A stretch of 64,000 nt of DNA from Botryllus schlosseri. Lineage: Eukaryota. How positions within the stretch are numbered: position 1 is the stretch's first letter; each line of letters opens with the position of its first letter. Position numbers and translations under genes: made by a program. Below, piece after piece: positions 6,378 to 63,245 of this stretch. The notes beneath the pieces were generated by a model. The model searched no databases, was not told the origin of the DNA, and saw only the letters and a program-made list of their open reading frames with translations. The DNA lies in NCBI GenBank assembly GCA_051294905.1, contig CM119371.1, positions 1,490,001 to 1,554,000 of the forward strand, in the 5' to 3' direction.

Positions 6378-6551
6378 TAGTACATTGAACGCTTTTGTAT
6401 TCGACATTTCGTGCTGGTGACATCATATTTTGTGCTACAATTGTTGACATGCAATGTTCTTTTGAATTCTCTACCTGTTGCTGACGATTACCCCTGACGA
6501 GTGTAAGCCGAGAATATTCGGGTTCATTTCAATATAAATATACTATTCAAT
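6378..6551 (+). mobile_element. Short PLE 3'-end fragment with a degenerate hammerhead (6490-6523, GAAA>GAGA)
   Basis: Matches 57422-57594. Flanks tagttagtacattg / tagttagtaaattg resemble a TSD. Confidence 0.85.
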
Positions 6552-18312: not shown

Positions 18313-18346
18313 ACCCGAATATTTTCGGCTGACACTCGTCAGGGGT
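18313..18346 (-). ncRNA. Minimal type I hammerhead ribozyme (third PLE copy)
   Basis: acccgaatattttcggctgacactcgtcaggggt is the same motif with an intact core. Confidence 0.82.
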
Positions 18347-18612
18347 AATTGTCAGCAACTAGTAGAGAAATGGAAAGAACATTGTATATCAACAATCGTA
18401 TCACAAAATATGACGTCACCAGCATGAAATTTCGTGAATGAGAGAGCGTTCAATGTACTATTTTTAGGTGGTACACGAACTCCTTTTGTTGACAGAGTTT
18501 TGGTTGGTGTATTTTGATAAAAGTCGACACAAATGGAATTGTGAACGGCCTCGCTCAACGATTCGAAATCTGTTGTCTCGATAATTATTCGCACAAATCG
18601 GATCATCTAACA

Positions 18613-19641
18613 CAGTGGTTCCCAACCTTTTTCCACCCGCGTACCATTTCGAGGTTTCATGTAGTGCTCGCGTACCACCTACATAAGTTATGCGCGCCGA
18701 AGGTGGTCAAAAATGTTACTACCGGGTTGAGCTGCCGAAGGCAGCGAAACAGAAAATAAACTGCCCATTTTAAGGTGCAGTATACGATTTCTGTAGTGGA
18801 TCCATTAGGAATTCTTGTGGTCAGTTATATTAAAACGGAATTTGGTTAAGTAAGAATCCCAATGCTTTACGACTAGATCTCTTCCCGTAGGGCAGGGGTG
18901 GCCAACCTTTTTGCCATTCATGGCCGCATTTGAACTACTCATTTCCGGTGAGCTGCGGACTAATCTATTTAATGACATAGGGTTGCTATACGCACCGAAA
19001 TCGATATGGGGTCAATGGTGAGGTTATGAGATAGCAGGAATTGCCGCGCGAGGCGCGTATTTTTTCAGATTTACTACTGGATTTCGTGAATAATATAAGT
19101 AGTTTTACATATTACTATCAAACATTTAACCTTTCTCAGCCCATGGATGTGGTCAGATTGACCGGTAGAGTTGATGGAGGGGATGTTTTCGAAAATTTAG
19201 TTGATGATGCATCTTCGGGTGGACCAATTGTTATTAGTCACTGTGCTACATGCGGTTATTTCTTGACATCCCATCAGGATTGTCGGTATATAGTGAGGTG
19301 TACACGATTCCGAGTTGGTATTTGTATATGGGGCGCATCATATTCCCCTACTCTTCGAATTTGAAATGGGGGGCTCTAATTGCAAAGGGCCCTACCATAT
19401 TAAAATCGAGAAATATAGATATAGGCGCACAAATTCCCTTCAACAGCCGCAGGTTGACAATCCCTGCCGTACATCGTCACTGGTGGGATTGCCCCTACCC
19501 ACAACGACGACGACTTAAAGTCAACCCCATCTGAACTAATAACTCCCTTCGGTCGAAAAAAAAACAGAATCTACTCGCGTACCACCAGGAAGACCTTCGC
19601 GTACCACTAGTGGTACGCGTACCACAGGTTGGGAACCACTG
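18613..19641. mobile_element. Non-autonomous hAT (Buster/Charlie-like) element
   Basis: TIR cagtggttcccaacc / ggttgggaaccactg. Perfect 8-bp TA-centred TSD atctaaca (18605-18612 / 19642-19649). A shorter reverse copy lies at 10550-10905. Confidence 0.92.
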
Positions 19642-20622
19642 ATCTAACAGATGTTCGCCGATGGCAGAATTAATGGCCTTTGATCGATCAGCATCAATCT
19701 TAAGCGGATGAGTTATGAGTTATGAGTATTCAATTGTATATTGAAGTTCTGTACCTCCAAGAAGCTCTTCACAGTCAGACTTGTACAATAAGGGTGTAAA
19801 AAGGACTTTTTTTTCAAATTTTGTCGGCTTTATTGTCAAATAATCGAGTTACCTTAAAAAAATGTTGCACACCAAATTTGACCCAATTCCAACCAGTAGA
19901 TGCGGAGGCCATTAAAATTGAAATTTTGCTAATTTTTAAATAATAGTATTTACGGTTGCCAATTTCGTCAGACCGAAATGGCCAAAAATCGTGTTCCAGG
20001 TATGTCTGAAGAGGCAGGGATGTCTTTTCCACTTGTTTTGAGCTTGACAAGGGACTATAGTGGAGTTTGGATGAAGACATCGCATGTAAACGAAAAAAAG
20101 ATATGACGCGGATTAGCTGGAAATTATTCCACTTCATTGAAATAGACACATTACAGCGATGGTGAGATAATTTTCAAATAGAGTAGACTTCATGCACTGA
20201 AATTAGGTGACCTGACGATTTGACAATCAGGTCGATGAAATTTGAAAAAAAAAAGTTATTTTGAGAACCCCTACCTTGCAGCCATTGCTAGCTCAGAATC
20301 ATGGCTACTGACAGGCTGAGGATGGGTTTTAAGCGTCAGAACTCATGTTTCAAGCTCGAAACCCCGTCCTGTTGAGAAGCCGATTCTATCTCCAATACTT
20401 CTTACTTACTTTGTAATTCATTGGTTCGTATTACTATCAGTTATTAGTTAGTTGTGTTTTAGTTGGTAAGGTATCAGATTTTCAAAGGTTGTTAGTTCTA
20501 GATCTGATTGAAGTTGCAAGCTTTACAAAGTGAGTACAGATTTTGGAAATCCACTAGTTTGTAAAAGTCGGGTTACGGCGCCGAATAGTGGTTTAAAAGT
20601 AAGCATGGACGTATCTACCCAC

Positions 20623-35474: not shown

Positions 35475-36120
35475 CTGAAATGAGAAATACTTGATTGTAA
35501 AAGATGAATGCATCCTATGAATTGTGCTTTGTTGCAGAACATATTGTGTCATATCTGAAACAGTCATCTGGTTCGAACCGAGTTAAAATAATCAAAAATA
35601 TAAATGATTTGTGTCTTACGATACACGAAGGTTTATTTATGGTAAGTAGGCGTATGGAACCTGCGCTTATCCACTATTTAAAAATCTAAATCCGGTTCCG
35701 GATGAGAGATTCAAATCTAAGTACTAATCCATATATAGTTTTGTATCGCGTCCAAATCCACGTCCAATCCTGTAATGGCTGAAACTTGATCAAAAGTCGC
35801 ATAAAAACGAAGGTTAATTTCAAAATAGAGATGCAAATCTATCTTCGCATGAATCAGAAATCGACATCCGATCAAAAGTGAGGCAGAAGAGATGACGCGT
35901 GACCTCAATACCAGAGAGATGTATAGAGTGGAGTGGAAAATTTTGATATTATTTGTTCTAGTTTCCTTTCAATACAACATTCATTGTAACAGAATATTCA
36001 TTAACTCGAAGACTTTTCGTGTGCCTCTTTTCAAGAGTTAACGGCACACTAAAGGGGTTTAAACAGATTTAAAAGCAAAACCAAAAAGGTAAAGTATGAC
36101 GCAACGAATTGTACTGGTAC

Positions 36121-50703: not shown

Positions 50704-52162
50704 CTGCGAAAATAAAGTGTTGCGAGTTAGGTCACAATCCACCAACAAGAAGCCCTAAGATATATGTATGACTGAAGAATTTTATTACCAAAATTCAAAA
50801 GAAACATCAGTGACTTGCAAACAGATAAATCAAAGTCCAGAAGAAAAATTATGCCAACCACTCACACTGTAAGAGTTAAATACGATGCCGGTTGAGCCCG
50901 CAGTAGCCTTCGAAAATTGTCAATTTGGCACGTCGCCCAGGAAAAATAATGGTCGTACAGAGTTCTCAAACATAATCTCAATTAGAAAGCACAACGGAAT
51001 GTACAGCGTAGGTAACACACGCTAAGAAATTACCTCAATGAAAAAACAATCAAGGAATCAAGCCAGTCAGATCGGTTTCGGCGTGCGGATCGTACGATCA
51101 CTCGGCTTTACAATAGTGACTACTACTGGCTACGCGAAATCACCGTGTTATAAGAGCATAGCTTCTCAAACGAGTCGCCTGAAATTGCGCACAGGAACCA
51201 CGTAACAGCTACATGCATTATATTGACCAAAACTTTTAGGAAATATATTAGTCCGTTCTATCTATCTATTTTGCGCCGAGCATGACGAAATTTTGAACCC
51301 GAAACTGAATTTCTTCGTCTTGGTCTCTCTCTCCCTCTCTCTTTTTTGAAGTACATATCACGTCTACTTGAAAATTTGTGATATCGAAAAGTAAGTTAGT
51401 AGGTATCGAAAATCGAAATATGACAGAGTACAAGTAGAAGTAGAGTGTCGGAATATTGGCTTTACTTGTTCAAGTACTACAAGTACGGGGGTACTTGAGT
51501 ACTTTGGAAAAGTAGAGGTACTTGGCCATTGACAAATTCTGGGTTTGAATTAATGGAATATTTAAATTCGCTTCCACTCTTAATCACCGCATCATTGTAT
51601 TGGTAATAAAGTTGAATAACGTTAGATTCAAGGTTATTTGATTTGATTAAACTAAGCTATTCAATTCCAAATCGCATCCCTTACAATGGTGTTTTACATA
51701 AATCAAAGCAGAACTGTGTCCAGAATAGACCTTGAATGTTCCACCCCCACCACAGAATATTTCAGTGCAAGATTTCGAAATATTTCAAGAAGATGGCTTG
51801 CCTGTTCAAAACAACGAAGGGTAAAAGCCCCATCCTTTGATTTTTAATCGATGTGATCTAAAATCCCGAATGAAATTGAAAATTAAAGCACAGTGACGAC
51901 AAAATATCTTTAAATTCAGCAGGAAAGAAAATTACTTAAGAAATTAGCACAAGCTGTAAGCTTACTGTTCCCTACAAAATTATCGGGTCTTCAAAACGCT
52001 CATAATTATCTCATCAGCTACAGCTTGGCTATACTACACTGTGAGGTCATCGCTTCACGTGCCTAGCGTTGTTCACAGTTTCGTGCATGTGCAATGAGCG
52101 AAAGTTCAATCCAATCATTAATACGGGCTTAATATCAAAGTAGAATCATCTTGATATCAAAC

Positions 52163-53259: not shown

Positions 53260-54055
53260 GGCTATGTGATAAAATTGTTAGGTTGGTTAAAAGAACGCTG
53301 TAAACCAGTTGAAGCGAGATTCTTGCTGTAGAAAATTTTGAATTATTCAATAAAAAAAGAATTCAAAGTTTTCTGTCAACCCCATAAAATTGTTAGGCAA
53401 TCAGTAGAGATGATGCACACCAAATTTGGCTCAATTCCAACCGCTCGGAGCGAAGTTATTGCCGTAGTAAAATTTACGATTCAATGATTTTATAATAAAT
53501 AATTATAGCTTTCAATACAACATCCATTGCAGTACAATATTTAAACTCAAATACTTTTCGGTTGCCTCTTTTTAAGAGTTAAAGGTACACTAAATGGATT
53601 TAAGCGGATTTAGAAGCAAAACCAAATCTGTTCAATTCCCTTCAGTGTGCCGTTAACTTTTGTAAAGAGGCACCCGGAAAGTCGTCGAGTAAATAAATAT
53701 TCTACTACAATGGATGTTGTATTGAAAGCTATATTCAAGTTATGTACGGCGAATCTGATATTCAAACAAATAATTGATGAGTTTGCCACCGTAAAAGCTA
53801 ATTTATTGGAATCCAACTTTTTCTACTGCAATAACTTCGCTTCTAGCGGTTTGAATTGAGCCAATTATGGTGTGCCTCGTCCCTGCTGACAGCTTAACAA
53901 TTTCACGAGGTTGACAGAAAAATTTTGAATTTTTTTTTGTCATTTCTGAATGACAAATCCAAAACTTTCTACTGCTAGAAAATCGCTTCTACTGGTTGCA
54001 ATAGACCCAAAGTTGATGTGAAGCATTGTTTTCGCCAACCTAACAATTTCATAAC
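53260..54055. mobile_element. Imperfect ~800-bp palindromic MITE of the same family
   Basis: 53270-53610 is the reverse complement of 53625-54052. The core also occurs at ~35965-36085. Confidence 0.72.
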
Positions 54056-55856
54056 ATAGCCACTGAAATCTAAACATTTTTTGTACAGCCTTAATGCAGA
54101 GGACATGTAGTATAATGCTTTCTATCACGACTACGGCGTCATGGATCACGAGCTGTCATCACGTCACAAGTCTCCGCATACCCACATAAACTATACTTCG
54201 GCAACTATATGCTTGTTAGTACGTAACTAAATCATAGAATCGATCTCACTTCCCAATCCAATTTTCCAAATAGCGATTCAATCCGACGATGTCCGAGAAG
54301 TGAACGTAGTGCTTTTGCTGGGAAATTGTTGTGACGCAAATCCACTTCCTTCACCTGCAACGATGGAAATATTTTATGAAACTAGGGTACTAATCGTAAA
54401 AGACAGTATACCAGATGCTATTTACGTTACGGCCGAAGGATAACCAATACAACGTACATTACGGAGCCAATGCTGATTGTTCAACTATTCGGGAACATGT
54501 GTCACATTCGATATAACTCGAGAATCTCTAGTGATAAAATGTGCGCACTGAGTTCACAGGTTTACGTAAAATGTATCGCAAAGTAGTTCTTCATAGAAGT
54601 GAAAACGCAACGCAACACAAGGAGAATTAAAGTGACAAAAATATGGCTCTGATATCTGGTTTCGCAGCAAAATGTCAGTTTTGGGTCAACCGGTCCCTGG
54701 CTCCCACAGAAACCTGAAATGGGTTTGAATATTGATGAACCAAATTCCAATGTCACCGCTTATAGTTGAATCTATCTTATTCCTCACAACATATATCGGT
54801 AGTCACCACAGTTTTCACGACTCCGACTCCATCGCGCGAAGATTAGCCAAACTCCGACTCCACAGCCCTGGTTACAACCCCGTCATAATCCTGATTTAAA
54901 TGTCCCATATTATATCGACTTTACTTGATTATAGATAGTGCACTGTAGTACACTGTTACATGACATCATCGAGAAGTGGCCTCGTGGCCATTTTTGGTAT
55001 GGCACACTGCCAAAATCAATATGAACAGACCAACACCGAATTTTGCGCAAAATTTACTGAGGAATAGGATGATCAAGTGATCAGCCGTTAGCCGCCATCG
55101 AAAACGAAACAGTTATCGCGCTTGACAGGGGGTTGTAATTGTAGCAAATGGCCTGAAGGCCGCAATTTCACGGTAAAATTGACATTGGAGAATATAAAAT
55201 AAAAGTAAATATTTGAATGCCAACCGAGAATGTTAGTAAACTGTCTAATGATATCATCATCTCATCACCTATCTCAGCATGGAACACAGTTAACGTTACC
55301 ACAGACACAGCGGCTTTGCGTGAAATCCGCAATTCGTTAGGTATAGGCCAGCGGTTCTCAACCAGGGGTCCGCGGACCCTAGGGGTCCGCGAAGCAATTT
55401 CAGGGGGTCCGCGAGACCTCTAGATTTTTCAAATGGTTGTTAACCTTATATTATTTTATTTTTAAATTTGAGAAAGCATGGGGCAGTTTCGCACCACAAG
55501 TGCTAAAACCTCATGACTCATATCATCATAATATTCGTATGACATGAACTATCGTAGTGTGGAAAATCATTTCCATTGCGAATTTTTCAATAACCTGCTG
55601 ATAGAAACATATTGCTGTTTAGAGACGTTTTGTTAGGGTTTGTGGAAAAAATAAAAATATGGAGATAACGTCAATCAGGGTGACTTCATAATGTCTGCGA
55701 AACCTTCTCGATGCGAAGTTGTCAGTACAATAAAATTAGTGAACAGTCGTTTGAGAAAAAAATGCCGGAGTATTTCCCTAATTTGTCCCAATGGAAGGAT
55801 TGAAACCTCGCCACGAAATTTATTTATTCTGTGATATACACAACCACTATTTTAAC

Positions 55857-55945
55857 AGCTTCTTGAAGGTAGAGAACTGCAATATACAATTGAATAGTAT
55901 ATTCATATTGAAATGAACACGAGTATTTGCGGCTGACGCTCGTCA
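55857..55945 (-). mobile_element. Degenerate PLE terminal fragment (tail plus eroded hammerhead)
   Basis: Diverged match to 56394-56482. Confidence 0.75.
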
Positions 55946-56453
55946 TAAATAAGAGATTGATATATCTGCCCTTAAAGCTCGACTATCAGATTTTGCACAT
56001 TCTTATTGCGGATTCCCTATCGCCAAGGCTGGTTTTTTGATGAACAAGGAGCGTTTCGTTGCTATCAAAGCATTACGCTCCAACCCTGAAATTCATATCA
56101 CCAGTTATATTGGTATGCAGCCTTGTCTTGTTAATGTTCAATTGTTCACGGTCGAAAATGTTTGCTCGTAAATATATATGTCAACCCGAACATAACAAGT
56201 CGTTCCTGACAGTTTTTCTCAGGTTGGAAAGCTTGGATCCATTCTTTGGCGCAGAAAATTTGTCTATACTTTTAGATTAAGATTTCACTTTGACAGTATA
56301 AACTCTCTGCGGCTCGCGATTTGTATGTTGCCATCCCTGCGCTAGCTGCTGGACATGATATGTTCATAAAATATATGTTTCTTCATTTTGAAGAGCTTCT
56401 TGGAGGTACAGAACTTCAATATACAATTAAATAGTATATTCATATTGAAATGA

Positions 56454-56487
56454 ACCCGAATATTTTCGGCTGACACTCGTCAGGGGT
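56454..56487 (-). ncRNA. Minimal type I hammerhead ribozyme (left arm copy)
   Basis: Exact reverse complement of 57534-57567. Confidence 0.85.
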
Positions 56488-56588
56488 AATCGTCAGCAAC
56501 TAGTAGAGAATTGGAAAGAACATTGTATATCAACAATCGTATCACAAAATATGACGTCACCAGCATGAAATTTCGAATGAGAGAGCGT

Positions 56589-57006
56589 TCAATGTACTAT
56601 TTTTAGGTGATACACGAACTCCTTTTGTTGACAGAGTTTTGGTTGGTGTATTTTGATAAAAGTTGATTCCAAGGCACACAAATGGAATTGTGAACGGCCT
56701 CGACCTACGATTCGAAATCGGTCGTCTCGATAATTATTCGCACAAATCGGATTATCCAACAGATGTTTGCCGATGGCAGAATTAATTGCCTTTGATCGAT
56801 CAGCATCAATCTTAAGTGGATGAGTTAAGGGTGAGCTTTTCACATCGCGTGACGCACGTGTTCTGATAAATCTGGGGACATGTTGGTTTATGCGGTCCTG
56901 CAGACGTCTTGACGTTCTTCCCACGTAGCCACAATCACAGTGGCACCTATATTCGTACACTACATTACTTTGTTGAAGTGCAGGAAGCACGTCTTTGCGT
57001 GTTGAA
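56589..57006 (-). CDS. Mirror copy of the PLE GIY-YIG domain (left arm)
   Basis: The ORF track translation is identical to the + arm from STRKDVLP onward. Confidence 0.85.
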
Positions 57007-57432
57007 CTGCTCCCTTCAACACGCAAAGACGTGCTTCCTGCACTTCAACAAAGTAATGTAGTGTACGAATATAGGTGCCACTGTGATTGTGGCTACGTGG
57101 GAAGAACGTCAAGACGTCTGCAGGACCGCATAAACCAACATGTCCCCAGATTTATCAGAACACGTGCGTCACGCGATGTGAAAAGCTCACCCTTAACTCA
57201 TCCACTTAAGATTGATGCTGATCGATCAAAGGCAATTAATTCTGCCATCGGCAAACATCTGTTGGATAATCCGATTTGTGCGAATAATTATCGAGACGAC
57301 CGATTTCGAATCGTAGGTCGAGGCCGTTCACAATTCCATTTGTGTGCCTTGGAATCAACTTTTATCAAAATACACCAACCAAAACTCTGTCAACAAAAGG
57401 AGTTCGTGTATCACCTAAAAATAGTACATTGA
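57007..57432 (+). CDS. GIY-YIG endonuclease domain, C-terminal part of PLE ORF (5'-truncated, no true start)
   Basis: LPSTRKDVLP..SNVVYEYRCHCDCGYVGRTSRRLQDRINQH...SAIGKHL...F.IV.R....LESTFIK..QPKLC.QKE matches the PLE GIY-YIG pattern (VVY..C.C..YVG.T.R.L..R..H; SAI..H; LE..I...P.L). Confidence 0.88.
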   Translation: MLPSTRKDVLPALQQSNVVYEYRCHCDCGYVGRTSRRLQDRINQHVPRFIRTRASRDVKSSPLTHPLKIDADRSKAINSAIGKHLLDNPICANNYRDDRFRIVGRGRSQFHLCALESTFIKIHQPKLCQQKEFVYHLKIVH

Positions 57433-57533
57433 ACGCTCTCTCATTCGAAATTTCATGCTGGTGACGTCATATTTTGTGATACGATTGTTGATATACAATG
57501 TTCTTTCCAATTCTCTACTAGTTGCTGACGATT

Positions 57534-57567
57534 ACCCCTGACGAGTGTCAGCCGAAAATATTCGGGT
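57534..57567 (+). ncRNA. Minimal type I hammerhead ribozyme (PLE-associated)
   Basis: ACCC-CTGACGA-G(TGTCAGC)C-GAAA-ATAT-TC-GGGT: stem I ACCC/GGGT, intact CUGANGA and GAAA core, palindromic AATATT stem III, UH cleavage site after C57563. Confidence 0.85.
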
Positions 57568-57984
57568 TCATTTCAATATGAATATACTATTTAATTTCTT
57601 CATTTTGGTGCCATAAATGTTACGAATGTATTCGGCAATCCTCGTTCATATCAAAACGAAGACGTGGATTTTCAAGACACGGCCTATAGTACTTCAAGAA
57701 ATACAGCAGCAAAATTAGCTTTGAAGTAATAAAAGTCTACCAATTTCTACATAAATCGTATGAGGTTATTTTCAAGAAAAATCATTATTTTCCTGTTTAT
57801 CACAAGCATACAGTTCATATTTGCATAAGACATGAAGGTTGCACCATATTAGAGCAAAAGTTGAACTCAAACTTGAGGGGGTCCGCGAGGGTCCGTGACG
57901 GTCAAAAGGGGTCCGCGAAACCAAAAAGGTTCTTTTCTTCTCAATAGTATTCCCACACAATCTGAATGCCCTTTACCTGGATAA

Positions 57985-61599: not shown

Positions 61600-62859
61600 C
61601 TAAATCTTGCCACGGTTTTTGAAAAACTGATTGACTGCCGACTCAAAAAATTTTTCGAATTGAATGCAGTACTGTCTCCGACCCAGCATGGATTCAGATC
61701 AAACCACAACACCAACCATGCAATACTATCAATTGTAACGGACTATTACAAAACCATCAAGCAAAAAAATAGTGGCTGCAGCATTTTTATCGACCTCCGC
61801 AAAGCTTTCGACACAGTTAACCACAGAATCTTAAGATACAAGCTAGAACACTATGGAATCAGGGGTATTGCAGCAACTCTACTTGAAAGCTACCTGGCAA
61901 ATCGCAAACAATTTGTTAAACTGGGGACATTAAGATCGACTACCAGAGATATAACTTGTGGAGTCCCACAAGGCTCAGTCCTTGGACCGACTTTTTTCCT
62001 CATTTATATTAACGACATTGTTAATGCATCTTTATTCCGCACAACCCTATTTGCTGATGATACTCACCTCTTCATAACCTCTAACACTGGCAATGATTTG
62101 CATGCATCCGTGAATAGGGAACTCCCAAAAGTATCGAGATGGCTCCAAGCAAACAAACTAAGCTTGAATGCAGATAAGACCGAGATGCTCCTTTTAAATA
62201 ATGCCAATCATAGTTTCACTGTGAACATCAATCATAAACAAATCTCCATATGTGACTCAGCAAAATATCTCGGTGTCACTATTGATGCTAAAATGTCTTG
62301 GAAGCAGCATATTGAATGCACAATATCAAAACTAGCTCGGTGTGTGGGAATAATGACCCGTCTGCAATCTTTGGTTTCCAGATCAATACTACGAACCATA
62401 TATTTTTCTCTTTTCCACTCTCACCTGCAATATGGAATCGTAGTATGGGGAAGTGCATGCAAAACATTTCTGTGCAGAATTCGAACCCTGCAAAACCGTG
62501 CGATACGGCTGATCTCATCTGTACCTTTACGTACCAATTTATCGCCTTACTACCGTAAGCATCGAATTTTGCGAGTTGATGAGCTATATCGCTTCGAAGT
62601 ATCAAAAGTTGTTCACAAATATTTTTCCAATAGTCTGCCTCCTGTGTTTGATGACTTTTTCATACCTGCTAAAAATGTCCATTCCCATTACACGAGATCC
62701 TCGTCAAAGGGAAATATCTACTTACCCCCACCCAATAGCAACCTAACTAAGAGATCTATCGACTACTCGGGACCTATCATTTGGAATGCATTACCACCAC
62801 ATATCCGTGAATTGCCTTATGATAGATTCAAAAAAGCCCTACTTGATCACCTCTTATCG
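61600..62859 (+). mobile_element. 5'-truncated non-LTR retrotransposon ORF2 (reverse transcriptase, CR1/L2 group)
   Basis: Open frame from ~61600 (VFEKLI..QHGFR..FIDLRKAFDTVNH..GVPQGSVLGP..LFADDT..KYLGV) with the typical C-terminus YTR..P..RSI.Y.GP.IWN.LP..FKK. No endonuclease domain. The last ~22 codons of the listed ORF (to 62928) come from an inserted hAT end at 62860. Confidence 0.92.
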
Positions 62860-63245
62860 CAGTGGTTCCCAACCTTTTTCATCTCGTGCCTCCCTTGGCC
62901 GAAATTTGAGCCAAAATTCCCCCCTTAGGAGAAATCTGCCCGATGATTAAAAAAGGTGATTTTTAACCGCGCAATCACCGGTTGACCGAAGAATAAGACG
63001 GGCGGTACGGAGTGTTTGTTTCTAGCAGTGCTGTAGCAACACTTTGTAGACCTCCAAAAACAATGGTCTTGGTCCCAATCAAACAAATTCTGGAAGGCTT
63101 GACTCAACAGACCCCATTTTTCCATTTGTGTTTTCGGCTTATTATGCACTAATCGCTAATATAACCGCTGTGAAAAATCAGTATGCATAAATGTACTGGT
63201 CTCGCGATTTTTTTCTCAAGTAACTAAGTAAGTGGCCTTCCTATT

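Follow-up and report, generated by a model that had tools for sequence, protein, structure and literature searches.

A hammerhead motif lies in the 3′ module of a Penelope-like element of Botryllus schlosseri, at 57534–57567 (+) of the window, by which is meant the whole stretch of 64,000 nucleotides that was analysed. Judging from sequence comparison, the motif is probably a ribozyme in which only stem I is local; helix II would be a pseudoknot and helix III would form between two copies. Helix II proper would be reduced to the single G10.1–C11.1 pair. Six nucleotides of loop II, placed after a one-nucleotide linker, would pair with a six-nucleotide strand ending 7–9 nt upstream of the core, and the resulting 6-bp pseudoknot, stacked on G10.1–C11.1, would give a 7-bp surrogate helix II beside stem I. 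The active fold would need a second copy, provided by tandem terminal repeats in the same transcript or by another RNA. Cleavage would fall after C57563.

Architecture of the motif

Reading of the interval 57300–57800 reveals a complete hammerhead core at 57534–57567 (+), with CUGANGA, GAA, A15.1–U16.1 and a cleavable H17 within 57538–57563. As the original prediction had described, the full core is accompanied by a 4-bp stem I, a stem II of one G-C pair and a palindromic stem III. The parts are the following.

57524–57529 (+): proposed pseudoknot 5′ strand GCUGAC, exactly complementary to loop positions 57547–57552; its end lies 8 nt ahead of the core
57534–57537 (+): stem I 5′ strand ACCC, paired with GGGU; stem I covaries across families
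57538–57544 (+): core box CUGACGA, C3 to A9, identified by sequence reading and by the copy probe
57545 (+): G10.1, pairing with C11.1 (57553) around the 7-nt loop 57546–57552
57546 (+): linker U, the single nucleotide between G10.1 and the pseudoknot 3′ strand
57547–57552 (+): pseudoknot 3′ strand GUCAGC, complement of 57524–57529
57553 (+): C11.1; the G10.1–C11.1 pair is invariant in 41/41 variants
57554–57556 (+): core G12 A13 A14 (GAA), by sequence reading
57557–57562 (+): palindrome AAUAUU, A15.1 to U16.1, replacing stem III; AAGCUU in relatives
57563 (+): C17; cleavage is predicted, from hammerhead numbering, between C57563 and G57564
57564–57567 (+): stem I 3′ strand GGGU, partner of ACCC

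The distance from A9 to G12 is 9 nt. A palindrome of 6 nt leaves no room for a loop, and therefore helix III is possible only between two copies. Across the motif family, stem I has 4–7 bp, helix II has 1 bp plus the proposed pseudoknot, and helix III is of the two-copy kind only.

Loop II had been said to be complementary to a strand located 5 nt upstream of stem I. The complement is present, exact over 6 nt at 57524–57529, but 4 nt separate it from stem I, or 3 nt when G57530 is included. G57530 could add a G·U pair with U57546; the position is A in the copy at 18.3 kb. The same upstream sequence had also been noted as a second CUGACGA, which fails as a general feature, being absent in the relative L003 and in the window's second family (both described below). 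The upstream strand there differs and still pairs with the loop, and hence it is to be regarded as a complement of the loop, not as a second core. The upstream CUGACGA was also considered as a real core and rejected, as it has neither a 10.1–11.1 pair nor a partner for stem I.

In the usual geometry of pseudoknots, one nucleotide, here U57546, is enough to span the deep groove of a helix of 6 bp. The constant 7–9 nt from upstream strand to core would suit two side-by-side helices of similar length, and we infer that the link of 1–5 nt between the pseudoknot and stem I can be accommodated in three dimensions.

Copies in the window

A 20-nt probe extending from the core to GAAA detects five sites in the window at three mismatches or fewer, versus 0.00 expected from 100 shuffles. 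Exact matches occur at 57538+, 56483− and 18342−. The match at 6494+ carries two mismatches (loop C>A and GAAA>GAGA), and that at 55946− carries three, with its upstream part replaced. In alignment, the five copies share sequence up to 57596 and diverge beyond. An earlier count of three intact and two decayed copies agrees with the three exact and two decayed matches, yet only two of the intact copies are independent, since 57538+ and 56483− lie in the arms of one 582-nt inverted repeat. These two are the products of one event, or one copy seen twice.

57015–57596 (+): 5′-truncated Penelope-like element copy, 3′-terminal 582 nt; arm of a perfect inverted repeat
56425–57006 (−): mirror arm with the same 582 nt inverted, 100 % identical, 8 nt between the arms
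56424 down to about 56385 (−): tail of ~40 nt after the mirror arm, shared with the 55946− copy
56454–56497 (−): identical hammerhead and upstream strand in the mirror arm, from probe, alignment and inverted repeat
18313–18356 (−): independent intact copy, with G>A at the equivalent of 57530, in a truncated element fragment of ~330 nt
6480–6523 (+): decayed copy with GAAA>GAGA and a loop C>A that costs one pseudoknot pair
55917–55946 (−): decayed copy truncated inside the core, with 3 mismatches and the upstream strand absent, followed by the same ~40-nt tail

All window copies of this first family are 5′-truncated 3′ ends. Near the 18.3-kb copy, endonuclease remnants at 18453–18658 and 19618–19716 (−) are split by about 1 kb of unrelated sequence, which indicates that an insertion interrupts this copy.

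The element and its terminal module

The motif follows an open reading frame for the C-terminal part of a GIY-YIG endonuclease.

56977–57432 (+): C-terminal GIY-YIG endonuclease ORF fragment, 151 codons including the stop

The distance from its stop to stem I, predicted as about 100 nt, is 101 nt. The Pfam GIY-YIG match of the ORF (E=0.023) is below the cut-off; 106 of 118 candidate homologues have E≤0.001, and in the endonuclease alignment the YVGRT..RL..RI.QH block is well conserved. With a GIY-YIG ORF in front and a palindromic helix III, the assignment to the minimal, dimer-type hammerheads of Penelope-like elements is upheld. The placement 3′ of the endonuclease ORF is common to four lineages, the copies being truncated with the reverse-transcriptase part absent. 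Inverted truncated neighbour copies and a tail of 30–40 nt at one end are typical of Penelope-like elements, according to Craig et al. 2021; here a 30–40-nt tail follows the 56483− and 55946− copies.

The 150-nt terminal module is massively repeated. The interval 57400–57640 matches 42,878 contig pieces in DNA run X2, 6,077 in X13 (which carries a second organism label) and 5,297 in X5, and the sequencing depth over this interval is highest at the hammerhead. Many genomic copies share only 57443–57596 and have a different, fairly uniform upstream sequence, which suggests a non-autonomous family borrowing the 150-nt tail with the hammerhead. Many also end at 57586, 57591 or 57596, or run into the shared ~40-nt tail; the positions concerned are 57586–57596 (+), 56385–56424 (−) and 55850–55887 (−). 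Such ends and tail resemble the signature attributed to internal initiation of reverse transcription in Penelope-like elements.

Several other features of the surroundings were noted. A TATA-like box (TATATAA-type) at 57491–57499 (+) is conserved in all four lineages (the window, L002, L003 and the M family) and lies ~32–34 nt upstream of the pseudoknot 5′ strand in the window and the M family. A transcript starting from it would begin just before the ribozyme; no step in RNA depth was seen near the box in the reads of run X24. Elsewhere, a frame of 442 codons at 61600–62928 (+) has, judged by translation alone, reverse-transcriptase-like motifs of a non-LTR (LINE-type) element. A CUGAUGA box at ~51940–52030 (−) has a 10-bp "stem I" partner ~60 nt downstream, C-G in place of A15.1–U16.1 and no helix II; it is probably a chance inverted repeat.

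Relatives and a second family

Relatives were sought by aligning the endonuclease fragment with 26 homologues and scanning metagenome contigs with the alignment. Of 526 matching stretches, 192 encode relatives, and the best 80 of these 192, at 45–61 % identity, were kept as loci. Among these 80 the same motif occurs 60 times, in 38 distinct variants, at 145–200 nt after the ORF match. Eleven of the best 80 gave no nhmmer match to the hammerhead module; no hammerhead was seen in the flanks of the 8 of these 11 that were read, one of which runs into a T-run. The architectures compare as follows, in the order upstream strand, link to stem I, stem I, core box, linker with loop strand, and palindrome.

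Window 57538+: GCUGAC; link 4 nt; 4 bp (ACCC); CUGACGA; U + GUCAGC; AAUAUU
M family (most loci): UCUGAC; link 2 nt; 6 bp; CUGAAGA or UUGAAGA; U + GUCAGA; AAGCUU
L002: UCUGAC; link 1 nt; 6 bp; UUGACAA (U3-A8); U + GUCAGA; AAGCUU
L003: UGACGC; link 5 nt; 4 bp; CUGAAGA; U + GCGUCA; AAGCUU
Window 36034−: UGUGCC; link 1 nt; 7 bp; UUGAAAA (U3-A8); A + GGCACA; AAGUCUU (quasi-palindrome)

The last of these belongs to a second family in the window. After its core box come G, the linker A and the loop, then C, GAAA and AAGUCUU.

36001–36048 (−): second family, same architecture; upstream strand 36048–36043, loop GGCACA 36025–36020, C17 at 36008
53542–53589 (−): decayed second-family copy; core G5>A, both pseudoknot strands mutated
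about 53624–53728 (+): further decayed second-family copy, inverted, forming an inverted repeat

Downstream, the 36034− family has sequence similar to the corresponding part of the first family, which points to a related tail module; no endonuclease ORF was found near the 36034− copy.

A degenerate hammerhead pattern yielded no match in the viral contigs or the metagenome contigs, and a match of the degenerate pattern in L001, inside an archaeal coding region, was set aside as chance. A protein-based scan of the viral contigs found no relative.

Directly after the hammerhead of L003, two hairpins (1319–1365 and 1385–1420, +) resemble the histone 3′ stem-loop. Their score with Rfam RF00032 is 27.7 bits (E=1.3e-4), short of the gathering score of 34. 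A hairpin is also predicted directly after stem I in the window copy, at about 57566–57583.

Conservation of the pseudoknot pairing

Four pairings of loop and upstream strand were found, each Watson-Crick at 6/6 positions: GCUGAC/GUCAGC, UCUGAC/GUCAGA in the M family and L002, UGACGC/GCGUCA in L003, and UGUGCC/GGCACA in 36034−. The upstream strand always ends 7–9 nt before the core. Since the sequences differ among the four lineages while staying complementary at a fixed distance, the pairing is conserved, and the complementarity put forward in the original prediction is thus backed by compensatory changes. Six candidate cores in the window match a loose pattern; for four of them the 40 nt upstream contain a perfect 6-nt complement of the loop, and its end always lies 8 nt ahead of the core. 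In the loci (best 80 of 192 relatives), a perfect complement was found for 42 of 54 candidates, ending before the core at 7 nt (1), 8 nt (40) or 9 nt (1). A control with the loop reversed and uncomplemented gave a single match in the loci, at 28 nt, versus 42.

Alternatively, the complementarity could be a by-product of a local duplication of CUGACGA, or chance, and play no structural role. The upstream strand does overlap a second CUGACGA in the window, in the M family and in L002. However, the upstream strands of L003 and 36034− are not core-like, yet pair 6/6 with their own, different loops, and the reversed-loop control likewise speaks against such an origin, which we regard as very improbable.

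Alignment A3 comprises all 41 distinct variants, unselected, with L003 one column out of register and two variants that have no upstream strand. Its pseudoknot helix is 92.7 % paired and its whole structure 93.6 %, versus at most 43 % with the partners slid; its covariation score was reached by 0 of 500 shuffles. With L003 in register, all six pairs are formed in 33/41 variants and all six are Watson-Crick in 29/41. Alignment A4 was hand-picked, with 14 sequences including at least one per lineage and the wobble variants; the broken-pair variants were omitted, and therefore its percentage paired leans high. Three of the six pseudoknot pairs change on both sides in A4, and the mis-registered L003 row could account for the only cells left unpaired there. 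As the covariation comes from four lineages, it represents few independent events. L003 keeps the inner UGAC/GUCA; what sets it apart is a register shift of 2 nt, by which two pairs are lost at one end of the helix and two others form at the opposite end, rather than six independent substitutions.

Single changes within families preserve the pair in L010, L015, L055 and L081, all via wobble, and break it in L038, both L048 copies, L068, L071 and the window copy 6472. The upstream strand is replaced in L004 and L045, and at least one pseudoknot pair is broken in 8/41 variants. Breaking is about as frequent as keeping within families, which is what neutral decay of dead copies gives. The genomic variants G57524>A and C57552>T are present at a few per cent each, with frequencies unlinked between copies.

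Predicted folds and competing pairings

With a helix II of 1 bp and a palindrome for helix III, a nested hammerhead fold would be held together by hardly anything. For the window copy, the fold of minimum free energy is inactive: two 5-bp hairpins, CUGAC/GUCAG and CCGAA/UUCGG, enclose the core. The z-score of this fold is −1.39, an energy that is not unusual. For the pseudoknot duplex, predicted energies range from −6.6 to −8.1 kcal/mol over the four lineages tested. The local hairpin that pairs the loop with the core and sequesters it is predicted at −5.1, −3.5, −2.6 and 0.0 kcal/mol in the four lineages, with −5.1 in the window and 0.0 in L003.

In the folds predicted for L002 and M-family loci, a stretch that overlaps the beginning of the upstream strand pairs with the stem I 3′ strand and the nucleotides following it, in an alternative helix that spans from ~10 nt before the upstream strand to ~10 nt past the cleavage site. 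This helix competes with stem I and the pseudoknot, and is not seen in the window family or L003.

The conserved helix might act as an off-switch, with loop II held against the upstream strand or the core CUGAC in an inactive fold until released. The loop of the window family is indeed complementary to the core as well, its minimum-free-energy fold being that 5-bp hairpin together with CCGAA/UUCGG, and the alternative helix of the M family and L002 would also work in this direction. Nevertheless, a ribozyme with a 1-bp helix II has no competent fold to inhibit unless something substitutes for helix II; the core-sequestering hairpin is not conserved, while the upstream pairing retains its 6 bp and its fixed distance; and solved and tested hammerheads use such pairing to activate. 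An off-switch is accordingly judged distinctly unlikely.

The original prediction had left a choice between a stabilising pseudoknot in place of the loop I/II contact and an inhibitory hairpin that sequesters the core. The hairpin loses its footing, as that pairing is not conserved across lineages and vanishes energetically in L003. The stabilising pseudoknot is favoured by the comparative data and by the solved pseudoknot hammerhead, with the amendment that it would replace helix II itself and not only the loop I/II contact. Lunse, Weinberg and Breaker reportedly stressed in 2017 that the small Penelope-like variants are without such contacts. We infer that the pairing belongs to the ribozyme fold, activating rather than blocking it, and that the motif acts in dimers and cleaves.

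Covariation in the rest of the proposed ribozyme, model searches and RNA reads

Stem I covaries and stays paired, as ACCC/GGGU, UAUCCC/GGGAUG, CCCA/UGGG and UUAACUC/GAGUUAA. The core pair 3–8 in the 41 variants is C-G in 9, U·G in 28 and U-A in 3, and is unpaired in 1. Since the U3·G8 wobble of 28/41 variants is that of the M family, the most amplified lineage had a weakened core. The U3-A8 variant has already been noted in schistosome elements (Cervera and De la Pena 2014, PMC4209133). Helix III has the palindrome AAUAUU in the window and AAGCUU in relatives, with a centre pair that covaries (GC 34, UA 3).

Across the window, no match to an Rfam family attains the gathering score. The Rfam hammerhead models have no match at E≤10 on 57400–57700 (301 bases), nor on L002, L003, L033 and L008. 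RNA was surveyed with 3,733 raw reads of run X24, about 6 % of the run, in which read ends do not accumulate at 57563/57564. Coverage is equal on the two strands, as expected for read-through of dispersed copies. In 94 of ~2,000 RNA reads of X24, GA is inserted behind 57565 and one base is missing at 57570; this variant occurs in none of the contigs of DNA run X2.

It is also conceivable that the conserved helix is a hairpin of the 3′ module recognised by the reverse transcriptase, with the hammerhead boxes a non-catalytic relic. The 150-nt module is, after all, what gets copied and amplified, and most M copies carry U3·G8. In an Anolis element, mutating the hammerhead left insertion in vitro unaffected and RNA-seq gave no ends at the site, in line with the read ends here; the Anolis hammerhead is also reported to need the protein of the element to cut. 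A simple hairpin signal, however, would not require a covarying core, stem I and palindrome. Stem I, the 3–8 pair and the helix III palindrome are covarying or kept, and G10.1–C11.1 is found in 41/41 variants, which counts against a relic. We therefore hold recognition of a mere hairpin to be unlikely, if less so than an off-switch. Protein recognition and a ribozyme role would not exclude each other.

Comparison with known hammerheads

Cervera and De la Pena 2014 (PMC4209133) describe the hammerheads of Penelope-like elements as having a long hairpin helix II of 6–8 bp, a helix I of 4–5 bp and a palindromic helix III, and as weakly active in vitro; action as dimers is proposed for them. The present motif agrees with these minimal hammerheads in lying in the terminal part of the element after the reverse transcriptase-endonuclease ORF, in being of type I with a helix I of 4–6 bp, G10.1–C11.1 and a palindromic helix III that implies dimers, and in having a U3-A8 variant and a very high copy number. 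It differs from them in having no helix II hairpin and in the position of the partner strand upstream of helix I. Among the canonical hammerheads tabulated by Craig et al. 2021 (File S2), stem II strands have 3–9 nt and none is a single pair; the same source flags cores with 7–17-nt spacers that fit no descriptor. On a non-systematic check by eye, cores noted in the Naiad consensus sequences of that supplement had long helix II insertions and were dismissed as not being of this design.

By complementarity, spacing and compensatory change, the motif has a 1-bp helix II and a loop pairing of about 6 bp with a strand 5′ of helix I, as expected of a pseudoknot hammerhead. Weinberg et al. 2015 is said to be the source for the pseudoknot (PK) hammerhead. 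According to Zhan et al. 2024 (PMC11300833), the crystallised pseudoknot hammerhead has G10.1–C11.1 and 8 nt between A9 and G12; its loop takes part in a 6-bp pseudoknot which, in the words of the authors, "fulfils the same role" as helix II. Both ribozymes share a short G10.1–C11.1 loop, of 6 nt there and 7 nt here, and a 6-bp helix in the place of helix II made from the loop and a strand 5′ of helix I. There the partner strand sits in the loop of an additional hairpin (helix IV), which an A-rich linker, forming a minor-groove triplex, connects to helix I; here it is a plain single strand 1–5 nt from helix I, with no helix IV evident. The sole local hairpin predicted near the upstream strand is weak and overlaps stem I. 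The crystallised form also has a normal helix III stem, unlike the two-copy, non-monomeric palindrome here.

About 40 % of hammerheads use a pseudoknot, according to Perreault et al. 2011 (PMC3088659). The pseudoknots described there, of 4–6 bp between the stem I and II regions and including a natural case with a stem II of one base pair, are like the one proposed here; they set the parallel arrangement, and activity depends on pseudoknot length and register. The example tested in that study is a bacterial or metagenomic type II hammerhead with a proper helix III, unlike a dimer-type hammerhead of a retroelement. The non-circular permutations of Eckert et al. 2023 (PMC10085705) likewise build core helices from non-neighbouring strands and thereby place pseudoknots in the core. 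In those, however, three blocks are intact and CUGANGA adjoins its helix II strand, whereas here the 5′ strand of helix II is separated from that box.

In the full-text literature, from which Lunse et al. 2017 was missing, no description was found of a pseudoknot replacing helix II in Penelope-like elements, and the motif strings themselves were not found in it. The pseudoknot hammerhead design and the hammerheads of Penelope-like elements are known; on comparison of the sequences, what seems new is a helix II supplied by an upstream strand in these elements.

Implications

The role and the weak activity of Penelope-like hammerheads are still debated. Our analysis raises the prospect, which we advance tentatively, of a subclass of hammerheads borne by eukaryotic retroelements with two of three helices non-local, helix II made with the 5′ tail and helix III between copies. 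If this is true, a transcript would be able to cut only if it started sufficiently far upstream and met a second copy. In the window family, where the loop can pair with the core as well, a built-in choice between on and off would result.

Searches cataloguing Penelope-like hammerheads require a helix II hairpin. The present design is invisible to Rfam models and stem-loop descriptors, and may account for some of the Penelope-like cores that defy descriptors. If the upstream strand supplies helix II, whole families, with thousands of copies in this genome, would escape the catalogues, and in vitro constructs omitting that strand would look inactive. It would also mean that the pseudoknot solution of bacterial, phage and metagenome hammerheads arose in animal retroelements too.
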